A program made the translations under genes and the position numbers. A model generated the notes under the pieces. It was given only the letters and a program-made list of their open reading frames with translations. It made no database searches and was not told the origin of the DNA. From NCBI GenBank assembly GCA_046757025.1, contig JBHHXN010000095.1, positions 1-19,669 on the forward strand: a stretch of 19,669 bases of DNA. The letters run 5' to 3'. Shown piece after piece: positions 16,622 through 19,579 of this stretch (position 1 is the stretch's first letter; each line of letters starts with the position of its first letter). The DNA comes from a bacterium. Its GTDB lineage: Bacteria > Zhuqueibacterota > Zhuqueibacteria > Oceanimicrobiales > Oceanimicrobiaceae.

Positions 16622-16687
16622 TGGCTGGATGGATTGAATGAAGCATAGCAGGTGGTAGGTGGTAATTTTTTTATCGTATTCAATGTA

Positions 16688-16832
16688 TGACTCTGTTGAT
16701 TAAGTCCATTTTTCCATCAAACTTCATGCTGAGCGGAGTCGAAACATGAATAAAAAACAACAGGTTACGGCCTTTCCCAAATTCACTTCGGGACTCAGCC
16801 TGCAGGTTTCTTCGACTTAATCAACAGAGTCA
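16688..16832. mobile_element. 145-bp MITE with perfect TIRs and 4-bp target duplication
   Basis: TGACTCTGTTGATTAAGTC (16688-16706) and GACTTAATCAACAGAGTCA (16814-16832), 19/19. TGTA directly repeated on both flanks (16684-16687, 16833-16836). Confidence 0.85.
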
Positions 16833-16923
16833 TGTATTGGTTCCCAGTAATTGTGAGCAACGGGCAGCTCAATTTTATTTACTCTAAATTTTAACCCTGA
16901 TAGGGTACGGAGTTCTGGCAGTG

Positions 16924-17049
16924 TTATGCTTTGTTTGCCTCGACAATCCGTATCTCATCTTCAGTAAGGCTGTAGAGTTGATAGACCATCTGGTCGATCT
17001 CACGCTCCAGCGCCTGAACGTTTGCCTGTTTTTGTGGGTTTTTGTTTAT
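16924..17049 (-). pseudogene. Orphan C-terminal tail resembling a type IIG (Eco57I-like) restriction-modification enzyme, copy 1
   Basis: Translates INKNPQKQANVQALEREIDQMVYQLYSLTEDEIRIVEANKA*; preceded in frame by a stop. Confidence 0.7.
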
Positions 17050-17323
17050 TCAGGTGAACCCTCTTGAACTCCAGGCTTCTTGCGCCGAAATTTATCAGCA
17101 GTCCGATTTCTATACCGTATGCTTCCAGGTAATTCATTGCCTGTGCCAAATGAACATCTTCAAGCTTAATGAGCGCCTTCAATTCCACCATGACCAAATC
17201 TTCCACGAAAAAGTCCACGCGACGGGGGCCGATATTCTGGTCTCGATAATAAATCGGCATTTCCTATTCGCGTTGGAAGGATAAGCCTTCGAGATTCATT
17301 TCAATGGCCAGGGCGCGCTGGTA

Positions 17324-17606
17324 TTCAGCCTGTGAAATAGTTTTTCTTTCTGTTTCGTATATATCTTTTTCCATAAGTACTTTTCAAATATTTTTCTCTA
17401 TGTGTGGCATCCTGTTGATTAACACATCCTTCAAAGTAAATTAATTTCACCGGTCTCCTATTAACTGTAGATTTTACTTTGCCGGACATATGTTCTTCCA
17501 ATCTCTTTCGTAGGTTCTTACAATATCCGGTATACCAATAACCGCCACTGCACTCAAGAACATATATGTAGTAAAGGTTTTACATGGTTTTATTTCACAG
17601 GCTGAA
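17324..17606 (-). mobile_element. 283-bp TIR-bounded element encoding only a GIY-YIG nuclease
   Basis: Perfect 16-bp inverted repeats TTCAGCCTGTGAAATA (17324-17339) and TATTTCACAGGCTGAA (17591-17606), exactly at the two breakpoints of the GxxExxY gene. Confidence 0.88.
17325..17585 (-). pseudogene. Small stand-alone GIY-YIG nuclease with a nonsense codon at position 2
   Basis: M*NLYYIYVLECSGGYWYTGYCKNLRKRLEEHMSGKVKSTVNRRPVKLIYFEGCVNQQDATHREKYLKSTYGKRYIRNRKKNYFTG*. YIY..YTG, R..EH and A..RE..LK motifs present. Confidence 0.88.
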
Positions 17607-17691
17607 CCTCCTGAAAACCATTGCCCAGGGTGGAATGCACCCGTATGGCGCACCCGATGATGCGACGAGTCAAGTCACCGTGCAAAAAACC

Positions 17692-17789
17692 GTCTGAACC
17701 TTGATTTTCTTGATGACTCGATTTACCTGATTTCTTTGGATTTTCATTCATCATGTTCATCCTCAAATCCCCATAATCACGGTTCAGAC
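17692..17789. repeat. Palindromic leader of the GxxExxY gene with 9-nt periodic GATT/AATC units
   Basis: GTCTGAACCTTGATT (17692-17706) and AATCACGGTTCAGAC (17775-17789), 14/15 match; internal (A)ATC recurring about every 9 nt. Confidence 0.75.
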
Positions 17790-17864
17790 ACCCTCCACAA
17801 TCCGTATCTCCTCCCCGGTTAGGCCGTAGAGTTCATAGACCATCTGGTCAATCTCCCGCTCCAG
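17784..17864 (-). pseudogene. Orphan C-terminal tail resembling a type IIG restriction-modification enzyme, copy 2
   Basis: Translates LEREIDQMVYELYGLTGEEIRIVEGV*; 17793-17864 is 62/72 nt identical to 16939-17010. Confidence 0.7.
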
Positions 17865-17969: not shown

Positions 17970-18689
17970 TTACTCTGACAGCACTGGCATACTATCCCAT
18001 GTTTTGCCATCCAATATGCGACCAGATTTTTTCTTATTGATGCCGCCCCATTGTTTGAAAAAGAATGGCACATCGTCGCGCAAGCTTTGTTCTTTGATGT
18101 CTTTTACCCATTCTTCTTTCATAGGACGAGCTTTTTTTCCGCTTTCTCCGCCGACAATCACCCAGTGTATGCCATTTAGATCTAAATTAGACAAAGGGCC
18201 TAACAAAGGCTCGCATGAAAGAAATTTGACTTGAGCTCTGGTCCTTTTTATTAGTTCAATTCGGTTAATTACACTTTGGTTTTCAACCGACACACCCATC
18301 CAAATATTGTGGCGCCATTCTAACCAGTCTTCGCTATCATAGTAATAAAGGACATCAGCCCGTTTGGTAAGCACTTGAAATACATGCTGCGGATTATCTC
18401 GCATCACCTGAAAAACACGTTGTATAAACTCAATGGGAATTTCTTCATGAAACAAATCACTCATGGAATTGACAAAAACTATTTGCGGTTTTTTCCAGGT
18501 GTATGGTTTTTGCAATTCTGCTTCATGCAAGGTTAATTGAAATCCATTTTTGTATTTCTCTAAGCCCATGGCTTGTAGACGTGTTGCCATGACTTCGGCA
18601 TAACAATATTTACATCCGGCAGAGACTTTATTGCAACCCGTTACCGGATTCCAGGTCATTTCCGTCCATTCTATTTTTGAATGTGCCAT
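17970..18689 (-). CDS. Phage Gp37/Gp68 family (DUF5131) three-Cys-motif protein
   Basis: SKIEWT..TWNPVTGCNKVSAGCKYCYA, FVNSMSDLFH, FQVLTKR, FLSCEPLLG, WVIVGGESG and FFFKQWGG motifs. Confidence 0.93.
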   Translation of the reverse strand: MAHSKIEWTEMTWNPVTGCNKVSAGCKYCYAEVMATRLQAMGLEKYKNGFQLTLHEAELQKPYTWKKPQIVFVNSMSDLFHEEIPIEFIQRVFQVMRDNPQHVFQVLTKRADVLYYYDSEDWLEWRHNIWMGVSVENQSVINRIELIKRTRAQVKFLSCEPLLGPLSNLDLNGIHWVIVGGESGKKARPMKEEWVKDIKEQSLRDDVPFFFKQWGGINKKKSGRILDGKTWDSMPVLSE

Positions 18690-19579
18690 CAGTTTTCTCT
18701 TTGAATGATTTGACTGGCTATTTTAACAGCGGTTTTATTATTTGAGGCAAAAACTAAATGATAAATTGGAACATTCTTGTGGTTCAACAATACCAGAGGC
18801 TTTTCGGTTGCAAACTTCCAAATAGTCTTAAGTTGCTGAACATACAGTTTGGCAATTTTGTCAATCGGTTTTGTTACTTTTTTAATTCTTTCTTCTTCTC
18901 CAAATAAGGTTTGTTCGGTCTCTTTTTTGTAAAAAAATTCTCTTATTTCTTGTTCTGCAAGTCCAAAGAAAGAGGTTAACTTTTCAATGTGTTCTAATTT
19001 TCCATCTTTATCTAATAGTCGATTCACAATTACACCGGTTGGCAGTAGAATCCATATATCTGTTCGTGTACCCTGTAATGAACAAATGCTCTGCCATCTT
19101 ATTTGCATTCCAAACGGGTCTAAGAAGATCAAGGCCGCATATTTCTTATCTCTTTTCATCGCAGTTGATAATTCCAACAATTGATTGTTGACGTCATCCT
19201 TTCTGAAAATGATATTTGGAGATTCGCTGAATTTTTCTTCTATTCTTACTTGCAAGTTTTTTAAAGTTTTTTTATCCGTATCTATGAAATAATAGTAATT
19301 AAAGGCAAAATTATCTTTAAGGCTTAAGACTCGTTCAGCAGAACCTTTGTAGACGTTGCTTTCCTCACTGATATTCAATTCTTCAAATAACGGCCTATTT
19401 TTGTAAATATCCTCCGTTCTACCCCCACTTCCTGCGAAGCCATCAAAATAGATAGTTTTCCAGTTTGGATGTTTTTTCATAATGGATAAGTAGGACCAAA
19501 CATACTTAGAAAAAGCATCTAATTTTTTCTCGGTCCAACTACCGCCCCAACGGCCAGAAGGTTCTTTTATGCAGTTCAT
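18689..19579 (-). CDS. tcmP: Three-Cys-motif partner protein (SAM-binding methyltransferase-like fold)
   Basis: WGGSWTEKKL..Y, YFDGFAGSG, GSA, FLDPFG and YHLVFASNN motifs; TGATG stop/start overlap with the DUF5131 gene. Confidence 0.88.
   Translation of the reverse strand: MNCIKEPSGRWGGSWTEKKLDAFSKYVWSYLSIMKKHPNWKTIYFDGFAGSGGRTEDIYKNRPLFEELNISEESNVYKGSAERVLSLKDNFAFNYYYFIDTDKKTLKNLQVRIEEKFSESPNIIFRKDDVNNQLLELSTAMKRDKKYAALIFLDPFGMQIRWQSICSLQGTRTDIWILLPTGVIVNRLLDKDGKLEHIEKLTSFFGLAEQEIREFFYKKETEQTLFGEEERIKKVTKPIDKIAKLYVQQLKTIWKFATEKPLVLLNHKNVPIYHLVFASNNKTAVKIASQIIQREN

Follow-up and report, generated by a model that had tools for sequence, protein, structure and literature searches.

A 283-bp GIY-YIG nuclease element inserted into a bacterial GxxExxY gene is a dead member of a widespread class of minimal mobile elements that has apparently not been described

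In the window, the whole 19,669-nucleotide stretch of DNA analysed here, a GxxExxY gene is split by a 283-bp segment in which a small GIY-YIG nuclease frame lies between inverted repeats. This raises the question of whether so short a segment is a mobile element and, if so, whether its nuclease is the enzyme that moves it. The features are collected in Table 1. The first-pass annotation of this DNA described an 86-codon GIY-YIG gene between perfect 16-bp repeats, one of which writes the end of the protein. The perfect repeats are indeed there, with 251 nt between them, and so are the frame, the YFTG-stop written by the right repeat and the ATG at 17585 (minus strand), 5 nt past the inner end of the left repeat, but that annotation overlooked that codon 2 is a stop. 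The frame matches PF01541 (GIY-YIG) with 52.7 bits against a cut-off of 22.6, no other domain being found between the ends, and it retains the family-invariant Y6, Y16, G18, R26, E50 and E62. Owing to the stop at codon 2, this copy of the element has to be considered dead and, together with the stop at 17264-17266 of the host gene, it makes both genes pseudogenes in the window. Read in the host frame, the left repeat gives VQPVK followed by a stop that ends 4 nt ahead of the nuclease ATG. The 16-nt repeat is present in only two copies in the 5.96-Mb genome, with up to one mismatch allowed. Contigs of runs X1-X3 are identical to the window letter for letter across the element and may be the window's own source.

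Table 1. Features of the element and of the gene that it interrupts (window coordinates)
Feature	Position	Strand	Remarks
Mobile element	17324..17606	-	283 bp; 34% GC against 47% GC for the genome
Left terminal repeat	17591..17606	-	Perfect 16-nt inverted-repeat partner of 17324-17339
86-codon Slx1-like GIY-YIG nuclease frame	17325..17585	-	Stop at codon 2 (17580-17582)
Right terminal repeat	17324..17339	-	YFTG, the final four codons, and the stop are encoded here
5' part of the interrupted GxxExxY gene	17607..17766	-	TIGR04256 positions 1-23; PF13366
3' part of the interrupted GxxExxY gene	17000..17323	-	TIGR04256, 73.5 bits; extra stop at 17264-17266

The arrival of the element by insertion had been deduced from the split of the GxxExxY gene (TIGR04256/PF13366) at GNGFQEV/YQRALA, the slash marking the junction here and below, and alleles devoid of the element bear this out: the comparison of filled and empty alleles, which had been proposed as a check, found both. 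Contigs in runs X3 and X4 carry the joint 17323-17606 with the element absent, and the X4 allele, 87% identical to the window flanks (49 differences in 390 nt), reads E-V-I-Y at this place, as do nine of 12 more empty alleles from the phylum. The window element replaces five target bases and duplicates none, and 22 of 22 intact homologues give the same five missing bases. A search of 60 relatives for the orthologous empty locus returned short matches only.

Relatives of the element were sought by a scan of the GTDB species genomes, from which the best 80 of 292 relatives were retained, and 30 loci from the window's own phylum were added; those best 80 come from Bacteroidota, Patescibacteria, KSB1, Cloacimonadota and others. 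The window's phylum is probably KSB1, as L005, a record that bears this name, is equal to L099, which comes from a genome of the same class. After removal of three duplicate loci (L098-L100), the ends of 90 close and 17 distant GIY-YIG loci were compared. Among the close loci listed, window included, 79 of 90 have two ends that match at 14 or more of 16 positions, compared to 0 of 90 shuffled and one of the 17 distant loci, so that the close homologues do carry flanking inverted repeats, about which the first-pass annotation had left a doubt. Perfect ends, true of the window copy, are on the other hand atypical of the family (16/16 in 10 of the 90 close loci listed). All 85 elements among the matches listed end in Y(F/L)(T/I/M)G. 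When the 27 close loci without one canonical end are set aside, the 63 canonical elements listed measure 271-320 bp, and their third end pair is usually C.A (35/63) or T.G (14/63). The repeat core varies among elements, with cognate ends perfect in 47 of the 63 as against 13% of non-cognate pairs; in 50 of these 63 elements, the compensatory cells in the ends amount to 62 against 27 expected, and 0 of 500 shuffles, uncorrected for kinship, reach the observed value. Four bases outside the core are conserved as well when the ends are found by the core alone (T 220, T 209, C/T 218 and A 218 of 251). A metagenome scan with the pattern of the right end only gave 29 loci, 22 of them with both ends, the seven others being three truncated loci and four chance matches. 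No family relative was found in viral contigs, where three pattern matches were due to chance, and plasmids and phages contain only distant GIY-YIG genes with 37-42% identity. A description of such a mobile-element family was not found in the open-access full-text literature, a scope that does not extend to ISfinder. Taken together, these data make it almost certain that the element is genuine and mobile: the 283-bp segment of the window, although broken, is a genuine copy of one of these tiny mobile elements, a family that is widespread and apparently forms an undescribed minimal class.

Unlike the window copy, most copies retain an intact nuclease frame (82 of 85 elements among the matches listed). 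The median dN/dS is 0.11 over 740 unsaturated pairs of 62 nuclease genes, and Y6, Y16, G18, R26 and E62 are invariant across the 53 sequences listed; as judged from these substitutions, the gene is under purifying selection. The AlphaFold model of the nuclease (pLDDT 92) has UPF0213, Slx1 and At-HIGLE as nearest folds, and the closest solved structures by both sequence and fold are those of UPF0213, PDB 1zg2 and 1ywl. With the domain, the two tyrosine motifs, the central arginine and the C-terminal glutamate all present, the protein falls in the Slx1-like branch of the GIY-YIG superfamily. The nuclease is probably the enzyme that mobilises the element, a reading that has to be weighed against several others.

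The first-pass annotation had suggested a search for copies reduced to the repeats, and such copies exist: minis of 38-113 bp, with the same ends as the full elements, lie in homologue loci, and the shortest, of 38 nt, are pure hairpins. In the window's genome, a 105-bp gene-less element with family ends (C228:6257-6361 of G000) splits the start of a Ser/Thr kinase gene at GEGG/MG. The end pattern is matched 244 times in 46 of the 167 genomes of the phylum, against 16 times for the reversed control. When 46 repeat ends from 30 KSB1 loci were examined, 30 turned out to bound minis and 11 the nuclease gene, and five are unpaired within 1.5 kb. These counts bear on the first alternative, namely that the nuclease is a passenger and that the ends of the MITE-like element carrying it are recognised by another enzyme, a transposase or host recombinase with its gene at a different place. 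In line with it, the family nuclease was not found in five mini-rich genomes (76-100% complete), nor an intact one in the window's genome despite its 105-bp mini, two results that count against the nuclease as the mover, and Y1 transposase genes are present in all five mini-rich genomes. IS1272 is moreover reported to replace its target without duplication (PMC5678879). Nevertheless, the annotation's own concern, that the same repeats might belong to a DDE or HUH insertion sequence, was not substantiated: no transposase-like frame is evident by eye at the 46 ends, the family end motif is found at 0 of 22 DDE_Tnp_1_3 or Y1 transposase loci (a direct search over two families in the five mini-rich genomes), and no other gene was found between family ends. 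The passenger reading also leaves unaccounted for the low dN/dS, the invariant catalytic residues, the repeat-encoded C-terminus and a target site that follows the nuclease clade. It is therefore regarded as improbable, although the best placed of the alternatives. Since several multi-copy minis have homologous flanks, some of them may have spread inside a larger repeat, which is a further point against our reading.

Eighty unique landing sites are available, of which 31 have an intact homologue spanning the junction; the other 49, lacking one, were not counted. At 31 of 31 sites the element is co-oriented with the host gene and some target bases are lost: two at one site, three, four and five at eight sites each, six at three sites and ten at three sites. 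The element opens after the first base of a codon in 24 of the 31, and no target-site duplication is seen at any of them or at the window's empty allele. Because the losses range from 2 to 10 bases, and because the left end of a sister clade (CTTG) does not vary with the target, we rejected both a duplication of the target and a crossover core of four fixed bases, of piggyBac-like or integron-like type. Derivation of the right end from the target was rejected too, as it fits the Bro-N sites described below and neither L078 nor four of the five GxxExxY sites, where the empty alleles mostly read GTG ATT.

The five nucleases found at the GxxExxY E/V site (window, L001, L002, L160 and L167) form one clade (support 100/99), and their hosts are KSB1, Bacteroidota and Patescibacteria together with two contigs without phylum label, thus at least three phyla. 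Both metagenome nucleases closest to the window's protein also lie at GNGFQE/V. The filled GxxExxY host genes require four changes on their tree, and their monophyly is rejected (AU test, p=0.019) in a weakly resolved tree of 17 rows with one long branch. With the nucleases in one clade and the filled host genes not, the GxxExxY site was struck independently. Silent change in the host flanks has reached saturation (pS 0.87-0.89 and pN 0.14-0.20 in three pairs), and wobble differences between the filled flanks extend as far as the junction, so that insertion took place without co-conversion of the flanks. Bro-N genes are struck at RDN/MT by the full elements of L008, L012, L015, L020 and L023 and by a 54-bp mini in L028, and further targets preferred by other clades are the stop codon of FGE-domain genes, Schlafen/RecG-like genes and two groups of genes that we label from their motifs, namely four-helix-bundle genes and integron-type integrase genes. 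The landing sites are thus clade-specific as far as these sequences tell, and one of them has been reused independently by a single nuclease clade. Both this specificity and the lack of target duplication had escaped the first-pass annotation. The preference is not absolute, the sister clade striking other genes as well. No long target consensus was found over 73 sites, which share only a purine before the left end (63/73) and an A at -3 (37/73). With so weak a consensus, the choice of site by 86 residues goes unexplained, a point that we count against the nuclease as the mover.

The same observations are relevant to free-standing homing, in which the enzyme would cut empty alleles only and repair would copy the element, the paired ends aiding the copying or being tolerated rather than serving as substrate. 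The use of the same base in conserved motifs across phyla, with wobble changes tolerated, is what homing endonucleases do (PMC1564403). However, identity to the window's flanks is no more than 58-67% at the filled sites, with no trace of co-conversion, the junctions vary by 2-10 bases, the nuclease has no extra DNA-binding domain, and gene-less minis retain the ends and reach the same sites. Homing is consequently judged unlikely, marginally more so than a passenger nuclease.

An RNA route, in which the nuclease would nick the target and a borrowed reverse transcriptase would copy the transcript, as in Penelope with its own enzyme, is less probable again, and by a clear step. It would agree with the strict co-orientation and with some of the targets, the FGE-domain and four-helix-bundle genes, which presumably recall diversity-generating retroelements; one reverse transcriptase gene also adjoins an element, at L074. 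A three-way junction with compensatory changes in the coding sequence, found in 24 of 50 elements and forming a subfamily, points the same way. Such a junction is not universal: it is missing in the window copy, where 2/10 and 3/10 of the pairs form, and the consensus fold does not show it either. Against this route, the element has no reverse transcriptase and a single one was met among the 42 neighbouring proteins scanned; there is no G.U bias on the coding strand, no Rfam match (introns included) was found in seven loci, and both element ends are precise. More generally, the G.T and A.C mispairs of the stem display no clear strand bias (9 versus 15), so that a folded single strand is not proven. 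Finally, one old insertion inherited with the GxxExxY gene, its function saved by intron-like splicing or excision, would explain why both junctions are common to four of the five filled alleles and why host and element are both deeply diverged, but it is barely credible, given that the filled host genes are not one clade, that the window's host gene is nearer to empty alleles (87% and 73%) than to filled ones (58-67%) and carries a stop, and that the lost bases differ in frame between sites, so that no uniform splice restores the host gene.

Returning to the nuclease as the mover, the following model can be proposed. The element would leave no room for a promoter of its own; the nuclease gene would be transcribed from that of the host gene, and it would be translated by coupling to the truncated host frame. 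In 24 of the 28 cases counted, without chance control, the host-frame stop lies between -8 and +13 nt relative to the start of the nuclease. In the single-stranded element, the two ends would pair into a stem, as the 38-nt pure hairpins and the pairing of the subfamily's coding sequence with both ends lead us to propose. The nuclease would nick at the base of this stem, by analogy with Slx1, which cuts branched DNA, and SsnA, which cuts beside hairpins, and would also nick the preferred target sequence. Cleavage by GIY-YIG hydrolases yields 3'-OH ends and does not pass through a covalent intermediate; the element would therefore be patched in by the polymerase and ligase of the host, with a few bases trimmed. 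The gene-less minis would be moved in trans. To our knowledge, strand transfer by GIY-YIG enzymes has no precedent. As a whole, the account of a 271-320-bp family with co-varying inverted repeats that inserts site-preferentially without duplication, the nuclease being the likely mover, is the one that we favour, with some reserve as regards its mechanism. We are evenly divided on its widest form, according to which these would be a new kind of insertion element in prokaryotes, at about 285 bp among the smallest autonomous mobile DNAs, one 86-residue nuclease reading the paired ends, picking a clade-specific target, making use of host repair, promoter and ribosomes, and driving a large family of palindromic 38-113-bp minis in KSB1, Bacteroidota and Patescibacteria.

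Among known systems, the closest is Ssn/SRM, for which Chenal et al. (2025; PMC11893778) called the NTS-ssnA-NTS arrangement IS-like and hypothesised a domesticated mobile element, the sections available of that study covering cutting and not mobility. If the nuclease is the mover, the present family would provide a direct test of this hypothesis that hairpin-linked small GIY-YIG genes are mobile elements. In both cases, a single-domain GIY-YIG protein of about 90 residues is tied to an inverted repeat. Ssn genes, however, adjoin hairpins of 20-50 nt that are separate from them, whereas in the present family the gene lies inside a single pair of repeats, which also encodes its C-terminus, and mobility is evident from filled and empty alleles. 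The SRM motif in its published degenerate form occurs within 500 nt of one of 63 elements, with a limited sensitivity, as the pattern also missed three Ssn-type loci of the window's genome. The three proteins of these loci, which we take to be Ssn-type on the basis of a cd10448 pattern, are unmatched by tblastn at E 1 and sit on a long separate branch of the tree (100/99), and the profile match covers the shared core only, with 33% identity.

Like insertion sequences and MITEs, the family has inverted repeats at its termini and a single gene that takes up the whole element, disrupts other genes and has given rise to gene-less derivatives with the same ends, but it measures about 285 bp, has no DDE, HUH, serine, tyrosine or DEDD enzyme, loses 2-10 bases instead of duplicating them, and is strictly co-oriented with clade-specific sites. 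IS200/IS605 elements and REP-associated Y1 transposases rely on a small HUH enzyme that acts through a covalent tyrosine intermediate, and each end has its own hairpin. A small enzyme, hairpin ends, the lack of target duplication and many gene-less palindromic copies are common to them and to the present family, in which the fold is in contrast the hydrolytic GIY-YIG one and a single stem runs from end to end. The GIY-YIG homing endonucleases, either intron-encoded like I-TevI or free-standing like T4 Seg, share the catalytic fold, the selfish spread and the recurrent targeting of conserved codons within a gene family. Here, however, there is no intron or intein, no added DNA-binding module and no flank co-conversion, the host gene is destroyed and the terminal repeats are conserved. 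As for earlier reports, IS200/IS605 and REP-associated Y1 transposases come up in the discussion of PMC11893778, one recent GIY-YIG insertion into an HsdR gene is mentioned in PMC1564403, and PMC11270868 notes that insertions other than introns in the rRNA genes of CPR bacteria contain GIY-YIG genes, the passages of the latter two papers at hand mentioning neither inverted repeats nor a mobile family.

If the nuclease is the mover, a simple hydrolytic nuclease aided by host repair would represent a new chemistry for bacterial transposition; many Slx1-like GIY-YIG genes that stand alone and are at present annotated as coding for repair proteins would gain a function, and there would be an explanation for a palindromic repeat that is common in uncultured phyla and for the many broken genes found there. 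Natural clades with different targets and a protein of 86 residues would also offer a compact system to study, and perhaps use, site-specific DNA insertion.

Several minor observations can be added. An intact kinase gene starts about 30 nt downstream of the 105-bp mini of the window's genome, and 102-107-bp minis lie in kinase starts of other KSB1 genomes too (L247, L250, L251, L253, L256 and L259). At L229/L102, L047, L011 and G169:C76, minis and full elements are arranged in tandem, with a single 4-mer linking one core to the next; in the L102 array, each unit has a different interior of about 70 nt, so that the whole resembles repeats and spacers. Other multi-copy minis (L231-L235, L240-L242, L245-L246 and L260) lie within arrays of degenerate repeats of about 7 nt, presumably of the kind found around GxxExxY and four-helix-bundle genes. 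Elements right after the stop codon of FGE-domain genes ending in GFRL, a type which we believe to be a target of diversity-generating retroelements, were seen at L005, L009, L024, L027 and L097, and small hairpin minis then follow in L005 and L024. At L056 and L058, elements with a different core occupy another position of GxxExxY genes, with about 13 codons missing as counted by eye. A distant clade of small GIY-YIG genes (L111, L114, L116, L117, L121 and L123), which end in or beside a CCGCC..GGCGG hairpin with a tRNA-like sequence, sometimes in tandem, is probably a parallel selfish family.

In the window itself, a 73-nt direct repeat (16938-17010 and 17792-17864, 86%) lies on either side of the GxxExxY gene and encodes on both sides the same C-terminal tail, EREIDQMVY..Y.LT.EEIRIVE, presumably that of a type IIG restriction-modification protein, and the GxxExxY unit may in turn have been inserted as a cassette. 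Upstream of this cassette, a DUF5131 (three-Cys radical-SAM-like) gene and its TcmP partner occupy 17970-19579. At 16681-16839, a 26-nt inverted repeat (92%) with 107 nt between its arms is matched by many contigs in the same runs (summed depth 100-500) and is therefore probably another repeated hairpin element.
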